From Parcubacteria group bacterium M6-OD1-3 (GTDB taxonomy: Bacteria > Patescibacteriota > Minisyncoccia > Moranbacterales > UBA9337), in the NCBI GenBank assembly GCA_003056165.1, contig LSNR01000002.1:2726-66725 (forward strand): 64,000 bases of DNA, in the 5' to 3' direction. The notes below the pieces were generated by a model. That model saw only the letters and a program-made list of their open reading frames with translations, was not told where the DNA came from and ran no database searches. Both the position numbers and the translations under genes were made by a program. The first letter of the stretch is position 1, and each line of letters begins with the position of its first letter. Shown here in pieces: positions 13,048 through 26,134 of the stretch.

Positions 13048-13374
13048 AATCTCCTCCCTATTATTAAGTTTTCAAAAAACTATACTAAACAAAAAACTCG
13101 ACTTTTGTTCAGCCGAGTTACCTAAAGTATAGTTTTTAGACTATTTTCATTGCCTATTTAAACTTAAATATTTTTTTAGATAATTACGGCTGAACAAAAT
13201 ATTCCGAAATGGAATAACAGAAAACGCACCACTCATAAGAGTGTTTGCTTTTTGTTTATTCAACTGATAATATCTATTATTCATAAATATTTAATAAATT
13301 ATTTTATACCTAATTTTTACCATTATTTACTAACTTTGTCAAATTTTATATTTTTACCTATTATTTTTTAACAC

Positions 13375-13406
13375 AAAAAAACAGAGCTAACTCCGTGTTT
13401 TTAATT
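13375..13406. terminator. hairpin element aaaaaaaCAGAGCTAACTCCGTGtttttaatt
   Basis: Read directly; a mirror-image copy lies at 13921-13954. Confidence 0.4.
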
Positions 13407-13513
13407 ATTGAGAAAAATAATTTTGAAATATCATTTCGTTGTTAGCCAAGGCGACACCGTTTTTTTCAACCCCCAGTCAATTCCCGAATAACTTTTCAAT
13501 TATTATTTAGAAA

Positions 13514-13550
13514 ACGAAGAGACCCTAAATGCTGGTCTCTTCGTTTTTAA
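13514..13550. terminator. 9-bp stem hairpin (gaagagacc...ggtctcttc) plus T-run, bidirectional
   Basis: Read directly; downstream of the small minus-strand ORF. Confidence 0.55.
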
Positions 13551-13639
13551 AAGCTATAACAGCTCAAGTTCAGCGAGAAGCATATTTCTGAGATGTACTA
13601 ATTTATCTTTTGCTCTCCTTAATGAAGATTTCTTCGTTG

Positions 13640-13792
13640 CTAACAATTTTTTTTATGTTGTTGAGGAATTTCAAACCTATCCATATCCTCATCAACAACT
13701 TCTTCCACAACCTTAAACTTAGCATCGATATCTTCAATAGCAACCTCGACACATTTTACCAGCCCAGCAACACCTCTCTTCCATTCTTTCAT
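13640..13792 (-). CDS. small hypothetical protein (50 aa, MKEWKRGVAGLVKCVEVAIEDIDAKFKVVEEVVDEDMDRFEIPQQHKKNC)
   Basis: Own translation; strong SD (aaggaggaagagtaATG) and a terminator hairpin downstream; under the ORF-track size cutoff. Confidence 0.35.
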   Translation of the reverse strand: MKEWKRGVAGLVKCVEVAIEDIDAKFKVVEEVVDEDMDRFEIPQQHKKNC

Positions 13793-13920
13793 TACTCTTC
13801 CTCCTTTTTATTTACGTTAACTCCCTTTCCGTCAGACTATCAACATTAATTATATGTGTCAAGTTGAATAAAAAATTTTATCTACATATATCTTACCACT
13901 TTTTTAAAACAAAAAAAACA

Positions 13921-13954
13921 AAAAAAATACGGAGTTAGCTCCGTATTTTTAATT
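13921..13954. terminator. hairpin element aaaaaaaTACGGAGTTAGCTCCGTatttttaatt (near reverse-complement of 13375-13406)
   Basis: Read directly. Confidence 0.4.
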
Positions 13955-13993
13955 CAAAACTTATATTTTACTGTTAGTAATCTACTTCTTTTT

Positions 13994-14143
13994 TTATTTT
14001 TTCCAATCTTCGATGATAATTTTGTTGCCACTTTTATGCACAGTTAATTTTTGTTTACCTCTCCATTTTAAATCTCGTACAATTTCAATGACATTTTTTA
14101 ATCTCAAATCTGTACAATCTCTTTTTGCTTGTTCTTCATTCAT
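13994..14143 (-). CDS. small AbrB/SpoVT (MazE-like swapped-hairpin) family protein, 49 aa (MNEEQAKRDCTDLRLKNVIEIVRDLKWRGKQKLTVHKSGNKIIIEDWKK)
   Basis: Own translation; ATG 8 nt downstream of the Fic stop (coupled); paralogous to the 58-aa ORF at 61211-61387. Confidence 0.45.
   Translation of the reverse strand: MNEEQAKRDCTDLRLKNVIEIVRDLKWRGKQKLTVHKSGNKIIIEDWKK
14001..14096. repeat. about 90-bp direct repeat, copy A (copy B at 15331-15423), flanking the Fic cassette
   Basis: Near-identical stretch 'ttcgatgataattttgtt...tatgcacagttaatttttgtttacctctccattttaaatctcgtacaatttcaa' read in both places. Confidence 0.8.
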
Positions 14144-14150
14144 ATTTACT

Positions 14151-15200
14151 TTAATTAAAATAATTTTTCACTGCATCTTCAAATTGTTCAATAAAAATTT
14201 GTTTAAAATACGAAATATTATTTATTTCATAAAAAAGCAAAGATGCTTTTTTATATTCTTCAACTTCCACAATCCTATAAGAAAGCGGCACAGAATTATG
14301 AGCCAGCAATATCGCATTTGAAAAGGTTCTCGCAGTCCTCTTATTTCCATCCTCAAAAGCTTGAATATAAGAAATCAAAATCAATCCCAAGAAAGCTTTC
14401 TCAAAAAATAATGCTTTTTTATTTATTAGCACAATCATTTTCTCCAAAGCTTCTTTAATCTGAAATGAATTATCTAGAGGTTTGTATTTCGTACCAGTAA
14501 TACCCACTCCACCATTTCTAATATTTTTTGTAATATCTAGTTTTTTAGTTAAAACAAAATGAAAATACTCTATATCAGAATAATTCAATTTTTTAAACTT
14601 CTCTTTATTTTGAATCGCCTCATTGAAAGCATCTTTATGATTCAAAATCATTTGAGTTTCTTTTTGAGTTTTTCCTTTTCCTGCGACATTTTCTTTGAGC
14701 AATGCCTCAGTGCCTAAAAGTGAATAAGTATTACCCTCAATAGCTGAGGACTTCCACGAAAACTCAATCATTATTCTTTCAAGTTCTTTATTAATTAAAG
14801 TTTGACTGTCATACTTTGAAAAATTTTTTATAAATTCAGTTTGTAATTTTTTAATCCTTTCTTGCTCCTCTGTTGTGAAAATATCATTTTCCAGAATTTC
14901 AAAAATTTCAAAATTAAAATTTTCTTTTATATCCCTTCTCATGTATGGTGTTTTGAAATATTCTTCAGCATCAATTGGTAAAAATATTTTATTTGCATCT
15001 GTAATACTATATTTTACTCCTCTTCCTGATCCAGTCTTTGAAATAAATCCTTGTTCTTGTAAATAATTTAAATCTCTTTGTAATGTTTTTCTTTCTATTT
15101 TAGCACCCAAAAAAGACAGTATATCTGACACTGCTACTTGTGTATCTCTATTTTCCAAAAAAGAAATAATCTTCTTTTGTCGTTCTTGTCTTTTATTCAT
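14151..15200 (-). CDS. Fic/Doc-family protein with N-terminal winged-HTH; Doc-type motif with catalytic His replaced by Gln (QAFEDGNKRTAR)
   Basis: ORF track plus own check of the DNA (caa gct ttt gag gat gga aat aag agg act gcg aga). Confidence 0.75.
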   Translation of the reverse strand: MNKRQERQKKIISFLENRDTQVAVSDILSFLGAKIERKTLQRDLNYLQEQGFISKTGSGRGVKYSITDANKIFLPIDAEEYFKTPYMRRDIKENFNFEIFEILENDIFTTEEQERIKKLQTEFIKNFSKYDSQTLINKELERIMIEFSWKSSAIEGNTYSLLGTEALLKENVAGKGKTQKETQMILNHKDAFNEAIQNKEKFKKLNYSDIEYFHFVLTKKLDITKNIRNGGVGITGTKYKPLDNSFQIKEALEKMIVLINKKALFFEKAFLGLILISYIQAFEDGNKRTARTFSNAILLAHNSVPLSYRIVEVEEYKKASLLFYEINNISYFKQIFIEQFEDAVKNYFN

Positions 15201-15216
15201 ATATACATTATATCAC

Positions 15217-15330
15217 TAATTGCGACATTTTTCAATACTAATTGCGACATTTTTTAAAGAATTTTCTTAAAAAGCCTTATTTTATAACAAATTAATTGCG
15301 ACATTTTCAACTGCTAATCACAACATTTTA
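15217..15330. promoter_or_regulatory. operator-like direct repeats TAATTGCGACATTTT x3 (15217, 15239, 15293) plus a degenerate 4th (15314), in two pairs 22 bp apart, immediately upstream of the Fic start
   Basis: Read directly. Confidence 0.45.
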
Positions 15331-15423
15331 TTTTTCCTAATCTTCGATGATAATTTTGTTGTTGCTTTTATGCACAGTTAATTTTTGTTTACCTCTCCAT
15401 TTTAAATCTCGTACAATTTCAAC
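15331..15423. repeat. about 90-bp direct repeat, copy B
   Basis: See copy A. Confidence 0.8.
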
Positions 15424-15478
15424 TGGCAAAGTGATGGCATAACTGCCATTACTTCGTTTTGATAACTTGCGGATGTTT
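15335..15478 (-). pseudogene. AbrB/SpoVT-like gene fragment without a start codon (…NIRKLSKRSNGSYAITLPVEIVRDLKWRGKQKLTVHKSNNKIIIED*), abutting the GIY-YIG remnant in another frame
   Basis: Own translation of minus strand; paralogue of 61211-61387. Confidence 0.35.
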
Positions 15479-15733
15479 TTACCCTGTTAAATAAGATTTG
15501 AGTCTCTTTTTTAGAAACATCTTTCCGTGATAAGTTTTTAGATATTTTTCTCTATGTGTAGCATCCTGTTGATTTAGACATGCTTCATAATAAATTAATT
15601 TTAAAGGTCTTCTGTTTTTAGTAGATTTAACTTACCCTTTATTGTGTTTCTCAAATCTTAATTTCAAATTTGCAGTATATCCTGTATAAAAATTGTTGTC
15701 CTTTAGTGAATATAAAACGTAAGTATAAAACAT
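15479..15733 (-). pseudogene. small GIY-YIG nuclease gene with an in-frame TAA (MFYTYVLYSLKDNNFYTGYTANLKLRFEKHNKG*VKSTKNRRPLKLIYYEACLNQQDATHREKYLKTYHGKMFLKKRLKSYLTG)
   Basis: Own translation; stop at 15632-15634 in the same frame as both halves. Confidence 0.55.
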
Positions 15734-15847
15734 TATTTTTTTGATTTGAAATTATTTAACAGGGCGAGCCCTTCCAATTTTCTTCTTGCCATATTTTTAT
15801 TTTTTATTATTTTATTAATTAATTTTTCACCCACCCTTAATTAAAAT

Positions 15848-15881
15848 TAATGACCACATTAATGACCACATTAATGTGGTC
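15848..15881. promoter_or_regulatory. tandem/palindromic element taATGACCACATTaATGACCACATTAATGTGGTC
   Basis: Read directly; sits in a non-coding stretch with an unusual GC-rich patch at 15960-16030. Confidence 0.3.
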
Positions 15882-16125
15882 GGTAAATATTTATTTTATT
15901 TTATATTTTTTGAATTTGCAACTATCATTTCATAACCTATCATTTATAATTTACCATTTTCCACCAATTCCTTCAACACCCAAAACACCCGCCCGCCCTC
16001 TGCTACTTACTCGCTCAAATCCCAATCCTATCTAACTGCTTCAATAAAATATTTTTCAATTGTTGCACTGTTTATATTGTCATATTATTTTTTTAAATTT
16101 TGAATTTTTTTCATTTTTACTTCTA

Positions 16126-16839
16126 TTATTTCTTTACAATTTTTAGTCCATCTCGTGTTAAAATTTCATATCTATCTGGTAAATTTACAAAATCTTCTCT
16201 ATGTTGTTTTTTGACTTTAAATGATAAACCTATAAGTTCATTATGCACCTCTGTCATGAAATCATCAAAAAAAGATGTCTCTCTGCCAAATATTTCATTC
16301 ATTTTTTTAGTTTCTTTTTCAATTTCTACAATATCCCATTTACTCCACTCATGTTGTTTAAATGATAAGTTTTGTATATATGCACTATATTCATTCAATT
16401 CCATGGTCAAAATTTTCATTCTATCAATAAATAATATTTCCTTCATTTCTTTTAATTTTGGCATAATACAGATCCACATATCAAAATAGTTCCATAACCG
16501 CAAATATGCTTTAATGAATCTTGACTTACTTTCATTGACCTTCATTACATAATCACTCCATATTTTCAATGCTTCAAAATTTTGTTGAATTGGATCATTT
16601 TTTAAAAGTGGCAATCTCATTTGTATAAATGGCAAATTATATTCACTGACTAAGACAGAGAATTCGATTGCGCATTCATCCATACTTCTTTTTAATTCAT
16701 AAATATTCTTATAAACTTCTAATTTCAATTTTTCTTTCATTATTTTTCTTTGTTGCCATATACCAAAGAAAAAGGCAGCACCCCAGCCAATTACAGTAAC
16801 TACAATAAATACAACTTGGATCCATTCTGTTTTATTCAT
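16126..16839 (-). CDS. hypothetical protein with single N-terminal TM helix
   Basis: ORF track; hydrophobic 'IQVVFIVVTVIGWGAAFFFGIW'. Confidence 0.5.
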   Translation of the reverse strand: MNKTEWIQVVFIVVTVIGWGAAFFFGIWQQRKIMKEKLKLEVYKNIYELKRSMDECAIEFSVLVSEYNLPFIQMRLPLLKNDPIQQNFEALKIWSDYVMKVNESKSRFIKAYLRLWNYFDMWICIMPKLKEMKEILFIDRMKILTMELNEYSAYIQNLSFKQHEWSKWDIVEIEKETKKMNEIFGRETSFFDDFMTEVHNELIGLSFKVKKQHREDFVNLPDRYEILTRDGLKIVKK

Positions 16840-16866
16840 ATTATTTTATTTAAAAAATATAATATA

Positions 16867-17754
16867 TTAATTATCTTTTTTATTATACTTCACTGCAACA
16901 AAACGTAAAAACGCTGCTGACATGCCTACTATCATCTCAACTTCATCACGATCAATTTGTCCTCCATTTCCATGCTTAATATCGTCCATTCTACTTTTAA
17001 TCTGTTTAAATATTTCTTTCTGCTTACCGTTTAAGCCAAGTTTTTTATGATCAACTTTGTCTGTTATGCTCTTAAAACTTTTGCATTTATTGTTTAATAC
17101 TACTTTTACAACTTCGTCACAAGATGCATGTAAATTGGCTATAACATTTTTCAAATCAGAATCATTTCTAGCCTTAGCAAAAAGCTTAACTGCTAACTCA
17201 AAATCATTTAATACGTTATGAAATTTTTCGACATCTAAAACGCCCAACGTATCCAAAATCTCTTGATTTAAATACTTTGCACTTAATGGTAATATTTGTG
17301 GTGCTTTTGTTTTATATTTTTTTATAATTATTCCAAGGATTGGAAAATCTTCTGCATATTTTTGCAATTCTTCAGATAAGTCTTCTAATTCATCAGAAAC
17401 AATTTTATATTTGTAGAATGAATTAAGTAAAATCTGCATATTAATTAAAATTTGTTCAAAAGCTCCATCTAAAATATCGTCTATAAATTCCGCTATCTCT
17501 TTATAATCCCACAAACTATCATACTTATATTCACTTCTATCTAAAAATATCTCTCTGCAACAATCATCCAAAATTCCTTCCCTAGCTTCATATAGTTGAT
17601 TTTGAATTTCCTCATGGCTATTCATTCTTCTAAATAGATATGTTGCCTCCCATATCTCATTTGCAACATACTTACGAAATCCATTTTCAACTTTTTTTCT
17701 ATCAATATCTAAGCCAAATCTTCTATATAAATTTTCATTTAAATTTTTGTTCAT
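16867..17754 (-). CDS. hypothetical protein; C-terminal 'RMDDIKH' resembles an Rx4-6H HEPN/Abi_C-type motif
   Basis: ORF track; motif read by eye only. Confidence 0.45.
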   Translation of the reverse strand: MNKNLNENLYRRFGLDIDRKKVENGFRKYVANEIWEATYLFRRMNSHEEIQNQLYEAREGILDDCCREIFLDRSEYKYDSLWDYKEIAEFIDDILDGAFEQILINMQILLNSFYKYKIVSDELEDLSEELQKYAEDFPILGIIIKKYKTKAPQILPLSAKYLNQEILDTLGVLDVEKFHNVLNDFELAVKLFAKARNDSDLKNVIANLHASCDEVVKVVLNNKCKSFKSITDKVDHKKLGLNGKQKEIFKQIKSRMDDIKHGNGGQIDRDEVEMIVGMSAAFLRFVAVKYNKKDN

Positions 17755-18154
17755 AAATTTATATATTAATATCTACACAAGTAACCCCTATATCAAACCT
17801 TTTCCATTTTTGTGCCTTGACTACTTGTGATTGTTTTAATTTTAATTATTATTTTAAACAAAATAAAAAAATGGAAAGTAAAATGGCGATATATTTTCAC
17901 CAGATAACTTTCCATCTTTTTAGAATTCTAAATTTTTTTAAATTTGTATTTTTTTATTTTTAAAATTTATCTTTTCCGAAAGTCAGATAAGCCGTCTGGC
18001 CATCATATTTTTCATTTCTTTTTATTTTTGAAGTCGTTTTTACTATCAACTTGCGTTAAGTATAACATATTTCAGCATAAAAGTCAAATTAGAAATCACA
18101 CGTTTAAATCATACAACTCATAAACCAACTTATCAATTTGTTTTTCTGATTATA

Positions 18155-18850
18155 TTATACAAAAATATTCCTCTCTTTAGCTCGCAAACTTGTATACCCA
18201 TTTTTTGATATAATAATATGATCAACTAAAGTGATACCGATTATTTTTCCCGCCTCTACAAGACGCTTAGTTATTATGATATCTTCTTCTGATGGACTGT
18301 GCTCACCCGACGGATGATTGTGTGCCACTACAACATGTGAGGCATTGCAACTAATGGCTTTATTAAAAACTTCTCGTGGATGCACTAAACTTGCATTTAA
18401 GATACCGACAGATACTCTATTAACAATTAATTTATTTTGCGTATCAAAAAATAAAATTATAAAATGCTCTTTTTCTTCTCTGCCAATCTTTTCCTTAAGA
18501 TAATTATAAATACTTTCTGAAGAATCTAATTTAAATGAGTTTTCCAATTTTCTTTCTTGATATATTTCTGATACTGCCTGTGATAATTTTAAACCAAATA
18601 CATTTGAAGGTCCGACTCCTTTAATTTGCATTAACTTTTCAATCGGAGCATCAAGCACAGCATCTATAGAATAAAAAGTTTTTAAAAGTTCTTTGGCAAT
18701 TTGCTTGCAATCCTTGCGAGGTGTACCAAGCGTTAAAAGTAATTCAATAATTTCATAGTCATGAAAACCACTCAATCCAGAATTAAGAAATTTTTCTCTC
18801 AATCTCTTGCGATGACCGTGTGATGAATTATTTGTAAATTTGTCATTCAT
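18155..18850 (-). CDS. radC: RadC-like JAB/MPN domain protein
   Basis: 'HNHPSGEHSPSEEDI' JAMM-like motif and 'KGVG' helix-hairpin-helix region. Confidence 0.85.
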   Translation of the reverse strand: MNDKFTNNSSHGHRKRLREKFLNSGLSGFHDYEIIELLLTLGTPRKDCKQIAKELLKTFYSIDAVLDAPIEKLMQIKGVGPSNVFGLKLSQAVSEIYQERKLENSFKLDSSESIYNYLKEKIGREEKEHFIILFFDTQNKLIVNRVSVGILNASLVHPREVFNKAISCNASHVVVAHNHPSGEHSPSEEDIIITKRLVEAGKIIGITLVDHIIISKNGYTSLRAKERNIFV

Positions 18851-18854
18851 AATT

Positions 18855-20768
18855 TTACATTATTGATGCACCATCAGAAATAACTCCGTAACTCTCCGGA
18901 TCTTTGGAAAATCTATTTCTAAAATATTCTCTTGTTTCCTCATCTTCTGAAAAAATATAGCACCCTTTCATCCCTCTAGTCATAAGTGTGCGATACGTAT
19001 TTTTTATAATAGGTTCAGCAAGTCTTTGCGCATATTCTTCACCTTTTTCTTTCGCTATTTTTTTAATACCTTTTAATGATTGATCTGAGGTAGCACGCTC
19101 TCTATAATCAGTAATAATTTTTTCATCACGCACAATTAAATCGCTACCAATGATAACGCCTACATAATCAAGCTCCAATCCTTGACAAGTATGAATACAA
19201 CCAACTTCATTCACTGAGTTTGGATGTATAATCCAAGCTTGTCCATGTTTCATTAAATTCCACCGCGCTTTATAATTCCCAATTTCAATATCAAATAATA
19301 TAGGTTCTTTTTTTGAAATCCATTTCCATGTATACCCCGCAATAACCCGTGATTTATTATTTATTTTATTTTTATTAATTATTTTACTATGCAAAACTTT
19401 TGGATTATCATATACGCCGAAATTATAATCAATATCATCAAGCGTATAATTTGCAGTTTTCCTAATTTGCAATACATCATCAAGCCATGCTAAATATCCA
19501 TCTGATCCATTACACCTAAACTGTGACTCAAGATTCATTTCCAATACATCAGCATCAGCTTTTTTAGCCCATTTTTTAATTTCTTCTTTTGAACCAATAT
19601 CCTTTAGCGTGACTCTTTGATCTTCGTCTATAAAAAATACTGCCAATTTTGCTGAGTCAATAATTTCCTTTATTTGATTCACTCCTAGATTGCCATACAA
19701 ACCAGATCTTTCATTTAATCTGTGTGCTTCATCAACTAATAGTACATCAAATAAATCAACTTCTGTTTTCGTATATGAGCCTGAACCTTTAAACATATTT
19801 TGAATACGAACGCGCGCATGCCCTCCTTCTGCTAATTTCCGACTAAAAACCTCCCTTGGCGCAGAATTCTTTGTTACATATTGCACAACTTTTTGTCTAT
19901 TAGTAAATTCAGATAATAAATTAATTGCGACAACAGACTTACCAGTTCCAGGACCACCTTCAATAATCAAAACTTGTTTACCTTTTGTTTCTGCTAATTT
20001 CGCTAAATACAACACTTTCTCATACACGACTTTTTGTTCATCTAAAAGTATAAATTCTTTATTGCCATTCAGCATTGATGCGAGTGAATCAGCCAAGGCT
20101 TTCGACGGACGAATTTTTCCATTTTCTATTTCATAAAGAATATTACCACCACCATATTTGACATGTGCCTTTATAAAATTTGTTAACTTCTCCTCATCAC
20201 CTTTAAAAAATAATGGGGCTTTTTTAATATATTTTTGATATTGCTTAGATTTAATATCTTCATCCTCCTTATAATTATGCAAATATGCACAAGGATCAAG
20301 ATTTATTTCTCCATCTTGAATTCCAGAATTATAATCCTCAAGAAATGTTACATACGACCAAACCTGATAAGAAGGATGACTAACCTCTCTTTGACCACCT
20401 CCTACATATGTTTCGACAACCACACCATCCATATCAGTCTCCTCTATAGCTTGCACTTTCTCCCATTGTTTTAGCTCAACTACAACAGCATTCTTTTGCT
20501 TTTCTTGATCCAATCCAGTAATTATAAAATCAATTCGTTTCGATGTCTGAGGTATCATATATTCGATTGCAATACCTGCCTCATTTGGAATCTCGTCATC
20601 GTCTATGACATTTCTCATGAATTGCATTGAGTTAATCCATGAAGTAACTTCTCTCGGTGATACACTATGTCCTGTTTCTCTAATCATAGCACCTTTAATG
20701 CGTGTATCAATACGATTAGCTACAACATCTTGTATAAAACCTTGCTTTGTTGCTGAATAAATTATCAT
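18855..20768 (-). CDS. DUF2075-family P-loop ATPase (Schlafen/helicase-like)
   Basis: N-terminal DUF2075-like region; Walker A 'GGPGTGKSV'; Walker B 'LLVDEAHRL'. Confidence 0.65.
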   Translation of the reverse strand: MIIYSATKQGFIQDVVANRIDTRIKGAMIRETGHSVSPREVTSWINSMQFMRNVIDDDEIPNEAGIAIEYMIPQTSKRIDFIITGLDQEKQKNAVVVELKQWEKVQAIEETDMDGVVVETYVGGGQREVSHPSYQVWSYVTFLEDYNSGIQDGEINLDPCAYLHNYKEDEDIKSKQYQKYIKKAPLFFKGDEEKLTNFIKAHVKYGGGNILYEIENGKIRPSKALADSLASMLNGNKEFILLDEQKVVYEKVLYLAKLAETKGKQVLIIEGGPGTGKSVVAINLLSEFTNRQKVVQYVTKNSAPREVFSRKLAEGGHARVRIQNMFKGSGSYTKTEVDLFDVLLVDEAHRLNERSGLYGNLGVNQIKEIIDSAKLAVFFIDEDQRVTLKDIGSKEEIKKWAKKADADVLEMNLESQFRCNGSDGYLAWLDDVLQIRKTANYTLDDIDYNFGVYDNPKVLHSKIINKNKINNKSRVIAGYTWKWISKKEPILFDIEIGNYKARWNLMKHGQAWIIHPNSVNEVGCIHTCQGLELDYVGVIIGSDLIVRDEKIITDYRERATSDQSLKGIKKIAKEKGEEYAQRLAEPIIKNTYRTLMTRGMKGCYIFSEDEETREYFRNRFSKDPESYGVISDGASIM

Positions 20769-20780
20769 AATTATTTAAAT

Positions 20781-21125
20781 TTACAAATCTGTATATTTTT
20801 TACTTATACCCTTAGCTTTTTTTATTGGATATTTCTTAGCATTTATTTTCATTTTGTCCTCAAGCGCTCCCAATAAATCTATATTATAATGATTAGAAAG
20901 CATAATAAGCCAATAAAGCACATCCGCTAATTCACTAGCAATTTCATTTTCTTTTTCTGGATTGATTTTATTATCTAATGTCCATTGAAAAAGCTCCAGC
21001 ACTTCCGAAGCCTCTAAATTAAGAGAAATGGCAAGATTTTTTGGATCATGAAACTGACTCCAATCACGCTCATCACAAAAATTTCTAATAGATTTAACTA
21101 TTTTTTTATATTTATCATCATTCAT
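20781..21125 (-). CDS. MazG-like nucleotide pyrophosphohydrolase
   Basis: 'EASEVLELF' and 'ELADVLYWL' EEXX(E/D) helices. Confidence 0.75.
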   Translation of the reverse strand: MNDDKYKKIVKSIRNFCDERDWSQFHDPKNLAISLNLEASEVLELFQWTLDNKINPEKENEIASELADVLYWLIMLSNHYNIDLLGALEDKMKINAKKYPIKKAKGISKKYTDL

Positions 21126-23361: not shown

Positions 23362-23545
23362 TCTTTTGTATAAAGTAAATCCACAATCTTTTGTGGTTCC
23401 CCTCTTTAATTAAAAACCGAAGTTTTTAATATGAATGCTTGTATTCAGAGTCGTATTCGTTTGGTATTTCGCCGAGGCGAAATAACCGACCTTATAGATT
23501 CATCCCATTGCTATAAGCAATAGGAGTACACCTTAACTCCCTAGA

Positions 23546-25645
<2,100 letters not shown>

Positions 25646-26134
25646 AAATTGAGTAATTTTCCCATATTAGAAGTTTTCAGAACATCCTAGTAAGGATCCC
25701 TGTCCGCCTCTGGAGGAAAACTCTCAATAAAATGAGCAAAAAAAATAAATTTAATGCCACATTGAGATTTATTAAAATCTTAAAGATTTTAATTATCTAA
25801 AGAAAATAGAAAACTATTTTCAAAAATTTGAAACTATAACTCTGAAATAAACATTGATTAATATTTTAAAAAAATACTAATCTTCAGGGAACCACAAAAA
25901 ATAATGATTTTACTACTACCTAATCAATATCTGTTTTAGATATAAAAATATAACTAAAACTGATTTTTTATGATTCTGTCCAAATTTCTAACCGTCAAAA
26001 ATTAGAAAATTTGGAACTATTTATCCAGACACTAAATTTGGTGTCGGATTCTTGTCAAACTGCTGTCATTAACTGCAAATTGATATGGAGAAAAATATAT
26101 CGCTGTAAAAATTTCTCCAGATTATCTGAAGTTA

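Follow-up and report, generated by a model that had tools for sequence, protein, structure and literature searches.

Nhi of Staphylococcus and the Nhi-like proteins (Millman 2022) have been shown by experiment to be defence proteins, and they join a nuclease to a DUF2075 domain. Together with eukaryotic Schlafen group 3, they come closest in layout to a 637-amino-acid protein encoded in the DNA described here, a stretch of 64 kb (the window) on a contig from a metagenome-assembled genome of the Patescibacteria, or Candidate Phyla Radiation (CPR). Its gene lies between genes for a MazG-like nucleotide pyrophosphohydrolase and for RadC, and we refer to these three genes as the triad. A second subject is a 295-amino-acid protein, labelled X, with its downstream neighbour of 237 amino acids, labelled TM_237. 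The nearest described relative of X is PDC-S32 of PADLOC; the PDC families were defined solely by 'guilt-by-embedding' in BREX, DISARM and type I restriction-modification (R-M) loci and have the standing of candidates. Also to be compared with X are the HEPN domains of Abi_C/AbiJ, of the AbiA C-terminus, of MNT-HEPN toxins and of PrrC/RloC, all of which carry the motif Rx4-6H, accompanied in PrrC/RloC by an NTPase domain. In Bacillus and Streptococcus, radC belongs to the late competence genes. To our knowledge, few defence systems have been recognised in CPR bacteria, whose genomes are tiny.

The window is AT-rich, with approximately 32% guanine plus cytosine (GC). Its sequence matches contig LSNT01000008.1 of assembly GCA_003056105.1, and the named homologues of its genes are all from Patescibacteria/CPR. 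Every gene of interest lies on the minus strand, and those that a preliminary description of the stretch had listed are all present where it had placed them. In the order of transcription they are the MazG-like gene, the DUF2075 gene, radC, a 400-nucleotide spacer containing a hairpin, X, TM_237, another hairpin, a GIY-YIG frame, a truncated small open reading frame (ORF), a gene for a protein with a helix-turn-helix (HTH) and a Fic domain, and an ORF of 49 amino acids. The features that concern the triad and X are the following.

20781..21125, minus strand: MazG-like protein, a DCTPP1-like nucleotide pyrophosphohydrolase of 114 amino acids, first gene of the triad (PF12643, 7.6e-16)
18855..20768, minus strand: 637-amino-acid protein with an N-terminal PD-(D/E)xK-like motif and a DUF2075 (Schlafen group 3) helicase of superfamily 1 (SF1), second gene of the triad (PF09848, 7e-102)
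18155..18850, minus strand: RadC, 231 amino acids, with the UPF0758 N-terminal helix-hairpin-helix and a JAB domain, third gene of the triad (PF04002, 1.6e-42; PF20582)
17884..17902, minus strand: terminator-like hairpin between radC and X (consensus scan and inverted repeat I21)
16867..17754, minus strand: X, whose CPR family is related to PDC-S32 of PADLOC, with an all-alpha N-terminal domain, a beta-hairpin and a C-terminal HEPN-fold domain (homologues, AlphaFold model, hhalign, gene context)
16870..17286, minus strand: C-terminal HEPN-fold domain of X, residues 157-295
16969..16986, minus strand: conserved motif of X, D257-D-I-K260-H261-G262, family signature [DN]-x-x-[KR]-H-[GA] (alignment of 27 sequences)
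16126..16839, minus strand: TM_237, an ORF of 237 amino acids lacking homologues (ORFan), with one N-terminal transmembrane (TM) helix, 27 nucleotides downstream of X (homology searches, TM segment)
15852..15881, minus strand: strong terminator-like hairpin of 13 pairs, after the X/TM_237 pair (consensus scan)

We lean, with limited assurance, towards reading this 7 kb stretch as two independent nucleic-acid modules, the triad and X, beside a decaying segment of low GC. Among the homologue loci compared with the window (labelled L004 to L040), no locus with the triad contains X and no locus with X contains the triad. Because the two never occur together elsewhere, what the preliminary description had taken for a single defence or toxin-antitoxin (TA) island is better seen as a juxtaposition. 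The genes within each unit are tightly spaced, with gaps of 12 nucleotides between the MazG-like and DUF2075 genes, 4 nucleotides between DUF2075 and radC, and 27 nucleotides between X and TM_237, and the spacer between radC and X has a GC content of 23.5%. Base composition is 23.5-28% GC over positions 13048-18154 and 31.5-33% in radC, the DUF2075 gene and a gene for a protein of the MFS family. The remainder of the window consists of housekeeping genes. PADLOC models gave partial matches (Fic, DUF2075) and recognised no complete known defence system.

The names RadC, DUF2075 P-loop ATPase and MazG-like, already given in the preliminary description, are borne out by family hidden Markov models (HMMs). 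The MazG-like protein scores 58.6 bits against PF12643 (cut-off 27), and its best solved relatives are dCTP pyrophosphatase 1 (DCTPP1)/RS21-C6 (9.9e-20, residues 14-114). It has in common with DCTPP1, an all-alpha MazG-type nucleoside triphosphate (NTP) pyrophosphatase, both sequence and the metal-binding motif EXXE...EXXD, which reads EASE...ELAD in the translation; it differs in being a minimal form of 114 amino acids that is genetically coupled to a helicase-nuclease. In the 637-amino-acid protein, PF09848 (DUF2075, now SLFN-g3_helicase) covers residues 264-609. Residues invariant in 20 homologues are E69, D80, E98-x-K100, the Walker A motif GGPGTGKS (271-278) and the DEAH motif (346-349), which means that Walker A and B of the helicase domain are intact. 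RadC is of the ordinary full-length type (214.3 bits against the equivalog model NF000642, cut-off 180), and the JAB motif HxHxxG...D appears in its translation as HNHPSG...SPSEED (HNHPSGEHSPSEED). It is a full member of the UPF0758/JAB family, yet its gene here comes third in an operon that it shares with DUF2075 and that is conserved.

The triad is contiguous and in the same order in six CPR lineages (the window, L011/12, L013/14, L015/16, L031 and L032/33). In these loci the gene boundaries overlap or nearly touch, and the flanking genes are different each time. Identities to the window proteins fall roughly together over the loci, from 75 to 56% for RadC, from 71 to 60% for the DUF2075 protein and from 60 to 46% for the MazG-like protein; the loci compared have no core genes in common that could serve as a yardstick for these values. 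The preliminary description had expected the interval to be variable between related genomes; the comparison shows instead that the triad is kept as an operon while its surroundings vary. Homologues of the 637-amino-acid protein number >8000 clusters, the best 120 of which are 58-73% identical over the full length, and the named sources among these 120 represent many CPR classes, including Paceibacterota, Microgenomates, Levybacteria and Roizmanbacteria.

The DUF2075 protein is also found outside CPR, in seven loci, at 41-54% identity and full length. Plasmids carry it in Halomonas, Hymenobacter, Marivirga and Priestia, and it is present in the archaea Methanosphaera and Halalkalicoccus (in the latter on a plasmid) and in the Microcystis phage Mwe-JY31. 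A MazG-like gene lies within 1 kb of it in five of the seven loci, namely those of Marivirga, Halomonas, Priestia, Halalkalicoccus and phage Mwe-JY31 (L034, L035, L038, L039 and L040). On the Priestia plasmid the pair adjoins genes for a DUF3578 protein, a restriction endonuclease, type I R-M proteins and an ABC-three-component protein. We found no paper that names DUF2075 together with MazG or RadC in a literature search.

In CPR, the neighbours of the triad include a Mrr_cat-nSTAND3 gene downstream in L013 (11244-13514), an AAA_15/AAA_21 ATPase gene upstream in L011 (4643-6553), and Bro-N/Fic genes in L013 and L031. A preference of the triad for variable regions is possible.

We favour the view that the triad is a mobile DNA-surveillance module which would have become fixed in CPR together with RadC, and a defence role for the MazG-like/DUF2075 pair is plausible. 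Surveillance would be of the Nhi type, in which the helicase-nuclease would unwind and cut foreign or aberrant DNA, the MazG-like pyrophosphatase would remove non-canonical (deoxy)nucleoside triphosphates, and RadC would be recruited in CPR as a third component. The likeness to Nhi and Nhi-like proteins lies in the combination of a predicted N-terminal nuclease with a DUF2075 SF1 helicase. However, Nhi acts as a single gene, whereas the 637-amino-acid protein has a MazG-like partner that looks obligate and, in CPR, RadC as well. Its conservation is also very high, which is unusual for a defence gene.

Several observations weigh against surveillance. Mean column identity among 20 homologues of the DUF2075 protein is 76% across CPR phyla, in a family of the size given above, which is unusual for an immune gene, and in the Microgenomates locus L015 the triad is flanked by the housekeeping genes for RecR, CysS, YchF, S6 and SSB. 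The 637-amino-acid protein matches PADLOC PDC-S41, AbiO and Nhi in part (~1e-15 to ~3e-15), and the Nhi and AbiO matches are confined to residues 236-438, which form the P-loop core and correspond to about a third of each model. Residues 1-235 match no HMM and no sequence in the PDB, and the presence of a PD-(D/E)xK nuclease there is one that we infer from the pattern of its motif. More generally, the defence-like character of the flagged stretch is partly supported, with the functions of all its parts read by inference.

The high conservation of the triad and its housekeeping flanks in L015 fit housekeeping repair as well as defence, and conservation at this level keeps repair or nucleotide sanitation in contention as a serious rival. 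The triad would then serve DNA repair, sanitising of the nucleotide pool or, as the place of radC among late competence genes suggests, processing of incoming DNA in reduced CPR genomes, in keeping with a RadC of the ordinary equivalog type and with the role of DCTPP1 as a house-cleaning enzyme. Such a role is harder to reconcile with the occurrence of the pair, at approximately 50% identity, on distant bacterial and archaeal plasmids and in a cyanophage, as would be expected of an accessory module that moves horizontally. It also sits uneasily with the Priestia copy among restriction genes, with flanks in CPR that are often mobilome-like or defence-like (Bro-N, Fic, AAA_15, Mrr_cat-nSTAND3, NOV_C), and with the same layout in the proven defence protein Nhi. 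We consider a housekeeping function possible, if doubtful.

X represents a family of 39 homologues with 30-61% identity, and the named ones are all from CPR. X itself gave nothing beyond noise against Pfam, NCBIfam, PADLOC and PHROGs models. A profile search of 1.84 billion representatives identified 129 relatives, mostly of about 270 amino acids and matched over the C-terminal half or more. When the X family was compared with this superfamily by hhalign, 263 columns were aligned (X residues 4-295; probability 99.9, E 1.9e-32). None of the 68 superfamily members tested belongs to a Pfam family; 35 of them match PDC-S32, at best with an E value of 1.8e-38, and eight weakly match the uncharacterised NCBIfam family NF046078 (STM4504/CBY_0614). 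The PDC-S32 models do not reach the window X at E<=0.1, and four of the 27 members in the family alignment match them at approximately 3e-3.

X shares with PDC-S32 and STM4504 an N-terminal 'RF(G/N)(L/I)' motif, a C-terminal [DN]xx[KR]H...ExE...FIR motif and embedding in R-M operons. It differs in two respects: the R-H-A of the superfamily is K-H-G in the CPR clade, and the window protein lies below the reach of the model. Within the PDC-S32/STM4504-like candidate family, X is best placed as a divergent variant from CPR whose HEPN motif is non-canonical. We did not find PDC-S32 described in the literature, including the supplements of the PDC paper, nor a function for STM4504, and a tblastn search for plasmid copies with the superfamily member P0244 found nothing.

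The preliminary description held that X ends with RMDDIKH(GNGG) and likened this to the Rx4-6H motif of Abi_C-type HEPN proteins. The segment S-R-M-D-D-I-K-H-G-N-G-G is present (residues 254-265), but it does not close the protein, as approximately 30 residues follow it. Within it D257, I259, K260 and H261 are invariant in the family alignment, and the window protein keeps all 17 residues that are invariant in the family. Position 255, however, is tryptophan, leucine or arginine across the family. Because R255 is not conserved, Rx4-6H is not a feature of the X family, and the earlier reading of the motif falls with it. The signature common to the superfamily reads [DN]-x-x-[KR]-H-[GA], followed in turn by E-[VI]-E and F-[IL]-R, and its usual superfamily form is N-x-x-R-H-A, then E-V-E...F-I-R. 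Set against the canonical R-[NDH]-x-x-x-H, this signature appears to keep the polar residue at -4 from the histidine and to carry the basic residue at -1, a helical turn away from the canonical -5. X thus differs from Abi_C/AbiJ, AbiA, the MNT-HEPN toxins and PrrC/RloC in its motif and from PrrC/RloC also in having no NTPase domain.

Structure prediction places a HEPN fold in this part of the protein. The AlphaFold (AF2) model of X, with a predicted local distance difference test score (pLDDT) of 85.7, consists of an all-alpha N-terminal domain, a beta-hairpin and a C-terminal helical domain, and the last of these shows the four-helix up-down arrangement of the HEPN fold. A separate model of residues 157-295 (pLDDT 91.5, predicted template modelling score 0.86) agrees with the full model, which puts the modelled HEPN fold in the same domain as the invariant histidine. 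H261 is residue 105 of this 139-residue domain, and the 141-residue HEPN toxin 7AE2 has H107 mutated according to the title of its entry. If H107 is the motif histidine, as we take it to be, it would be equivalent to H261, the two being compared by position and not by superposition. The all-alpha N-terminal domain matches nothing known. The suggestion that the 295-amino-acid protein is a HEPN protein thus holds at the level of the fold, and its supporting argument from the motif does not. Membership of X in Abi_C or in any other Pfam HEPN family was rejected, as Abi_C (PF14355) and the other HEPN HMMs found no match in the 27 family members (E<=1) or the 68 superfamily members (E<=0.01), 95 sequences in all.

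Homologues of X are embedded in or adjacent to R-M or methyltransferase genes in 13 other loci. In type I R-M loci (L006, L008, L024, L027) they lie between or just after hsdS genes and ahead of hsdR, and on the short contig L017 the end of hsdS is directly upstream of the homologue. In type III loci (L005, L007/L025, L022, L029, L030) they follow mod and precede res, or follow res. Stand-alone methyltransferase genes accompany them in L004, L020 and L028, the last of which also has a GmrSD/HNH gene. The X gene frequently overlaps the stop codon of the gene upstream. Clearly solitary copies are limited to the window, L009 and L021.

Two kinds of gene near these operons deserve mention. In L005 a 795-amino-acid protein (13649-16036), DUF262/GmrSD-like by our reading of its sequence, adjoins the type III R-M operon that holds the X homologue; its C-terminus contains 'KEYRNAVKHGRG', a canonical-looking R-N-x-x-x-H HEPN motif, and the block may be mobile, given a serine recombinase gene nearby. 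In L027 (3031-3699) and L006 (20-364) a divergent radC paralogue is directly upstream of hsdM and overlaps it. The L027 paralogue is 35% identical to the window RadC, and HTH and Fic genes come before it. In CPR, R-M islands may thus carry radC-like genes along with them.

The X family is strongly linked to defence by its gene context and by homology to a candidate family. On these two counts the defence-like reading of X in the preliminary description stands, while the motif, the likeness to Abi_C and the TM partner do not. The best-supported reading, drawn by analogy, is that X would be an R-M-linked second-line effector with a logic like that of PrrC. It would probably be a metal-independent RNase using H261 with K260 and D257, released, as with PrrC, when restriction is disabled. 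The window copy would have lost its R-M partner, or never had one; it is an intact gene, probably co-transcribed with an unrelated single-TM ORFan.

Besides the missing canonical motif and HMM matches already described, a number of results tell against an effector role. No R-M gene was found in the 64 kb window, and since the copies in L009 and L021 are solitary too, X may act alone or be inert. PDC-S32 is itself a candidate, so that comparison with it transfers no function to X. A Foldseek search of the PDB with the full X model gave insignificant matches to G-protein-coupled receptors and helical bundles, and nothing significant came from searching PDB sequences with the profiles of X and of the superfamily, the weak match 9wwz 'Dandelion' having an E value of 0.052.

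Going further, one may propose that the X/PDC-S32 superfamily is a HEPN variant in which the catalytic arginine has moved from -5 to -1, acting as an RNase that guards R-M systems, and, separately, that the MazG-like/DUF2075 pair is an undescribed two-gene immunity module, spread among bacteria, archaea, plasmids and phages, of which CPR fixed a near-universal three-gene form with RadC. We put this forward tentatively and think it somewhat unlikely to hold in full. Were it true, RadC, whose function has long been unknown, would gain its first defined functional context in an association with a Schlafen-type helicase and a nucleotide-pool enzyme, and CPR bacteria, which are poor in CRISPR, would have a common innate defence. 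X, as a CPR-specific branch of an embedded candidate family with a HEPN fold and a non-canonical motif, offers a testable hypothesis at H261, K260 and D257, and the results for both X and the triad could change the picture of CPR defence if experiments confirm them.

X might instead serve R-M systems, as an accessory subunit or as a regulator, concerned with the balance of methylase and restriction, with sensing of anti-restriction or with assembly. The HEPN-like domain of X would then have no catalytic activity, like that of sacsin or the MNT-associated binding domains. The position of X, mostly directly after mod, hsdS or a methyltransferase gene and often overlapping its stop codon, is what such a subunit would show, and so are the lack of the canonical catalytic arginine and the occurrence of X beside stand-alone methyltransferases as well as with type I and type III systems. 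However, such R-M systems function without a subunit of this kind, and the solitary copies in the window, L009 and L021 keep every family-invariant residue. Moreover, the histidine, the basic residue and the aspartate or asparagine are kept across a superfamily that has diverged to approximately 20% identity, which suggests an active site. A regulatory role therefore seems unlikely to us.

It is likewise improbable that the window X and TM_237 are a non-functional remnant of a lost R-M island, decaying like the GIY-YIG and 'AbrB-like' fragments nearby. The absence of R-M genes, the pseudogenes or degenerate genes in the neighbourhood and the low GC of the segment would be expected of a remnant, and in L006 and L027 the R-M operon that contains X is directly downstream of a radC gene, the relative position that X has in the window. 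Decay does not agree with the state of the two genes themselves. The longest stop-free stretch in 200 shuffles of the AT-rich region was 174 codons, as against 295 for X and 237 for TM_237, so that neither is a chance ORF. Both are intact, X retains all the family-invariant residues, and the identical pair occurs on contigs from three independent samples.

TM_237 has a sole hydrophobic segment, at residues ~5-29. A search of 5.8 billion protein clusters for homologues found only the protein itself, the Pfam, NCBIfam and PADLOC libraries gave no match, and tblastn gave none in 40 related loci. TM_237 is an ORFan, probably co-transcribed with X. Small, non-homologous proteins with an N-terminal TM helix are encoded directly 3' of X homologues in L029 (7884-8315), L030 (7912-8061) and L019 (1560-1868); BLASTP of TM_237 against the one in L029 gave an E value of 0.58. 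Three other loci and the window, among about 15, do not clearly exceed the number that chance would give in CPR, where small TM proteins are common. The single TM helix that the preliminary description reported downstream of X is there, and TM_237 as a conserved partner of X was rejected, no homologue being found anywhere searched.

That the whole 7 kb was acquired together as one variable defence/TA island is very unlikely: each class of component does recur in defence islands, Fic (SoFic, PDC-S04) and DUF2075 (AbiO, Nhi, PDC-S41) have partial PADLOC matches, GC is low at 13-18 kb and the R-M operon holding X in L027 comes after a Fic gene and a radC paralogue, but the triad is conserved as a block among unrelated flanks in six CPR lineages and is never accompanied by X, radC and the DUF2075 gene have the GC of the genome background, terminator-like hairpins separate the units, and no complete known system is recognised.

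Downstream of the X/TM_237 pair, the segment from 13.1 to 16.1 kb looks like a set of decaying mobile or TA-like genes, with three features.

15490..15733, minus strand: GIY-YIG pseudogene with an in-frame TAA at 15632-15634 (direct reading of the sequence)
14151..15200, minus strand: HTH and Fic protein of 349 amino acids with the degenerate motif QAFEDGNKRTAR (PF02661, 4.6e-09)
13994-14143, minus strand: small ORF of 49 amino acids, for which the label 'AbrB-like' is unconfirmed (ORF)

The GIY-YIG frame, when translated through its stop, matches PF01541 (2.4e-15), so the family named in the preliminary description is correct. The in-frame TAA makes the frame a pseudogene, however, and not an intact gene. 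An alternative genetic code that would rescue it was rejected, as the stop is TAA and other genes read cleanly with table 11.

The Fic fold is similarly recognised by its HMM, while the active site is degenerate: the motif reads Q-A-F-E-D-G-N-K-R-T-A-R in place of HxFx(D/E)GNGRxxR, and the catalytic histidine is absent. The protein matches PADLOC SoFic (2.2e-14) and PDC-S04 (6.8e-14) as well as phrog_11900 (5.7e-27), and its N-terminus is a winged-helix/DeoR-like HTH. A promoter-like site (11/12) lies upstream of fic at 15235-15207. Three to four copies of TAATTGCGACATTTT occur just upstream of the gene at 15217-15329, overlapping this site, and the array looks like a putative operator for autoregulation.

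The 49-amino-acid ORF had been called AbrB, a label that finds no backing in any AbrB/SpoVT/MazE domain match; Pfam, NCBIfam and PADLOC gave no match of any kind, and the one hit was weak (phrog_8262, 8.5e-4). Direct repeats of 97 nucleotides with 95% identity (13992-14088 and 15326-15422) flank fic and duplicate the 3' part of this ORF, which suggests that a fic cassette was inserted or duplicated by recombination.

Elsewhere in the window, the 16S ribosomal RNA gene (23545-25647, minus strand) is 2103 nucleotides long against a model of 1533 positions. Large insertions are typical of CPR 16S genes. Here one of 438 nucleotides (~24790-25224) lies near model position 458-464 and contains an ORF of 76 amino acids (24893-25123, minus strand), and the gene has approximately 130 further extra bases.

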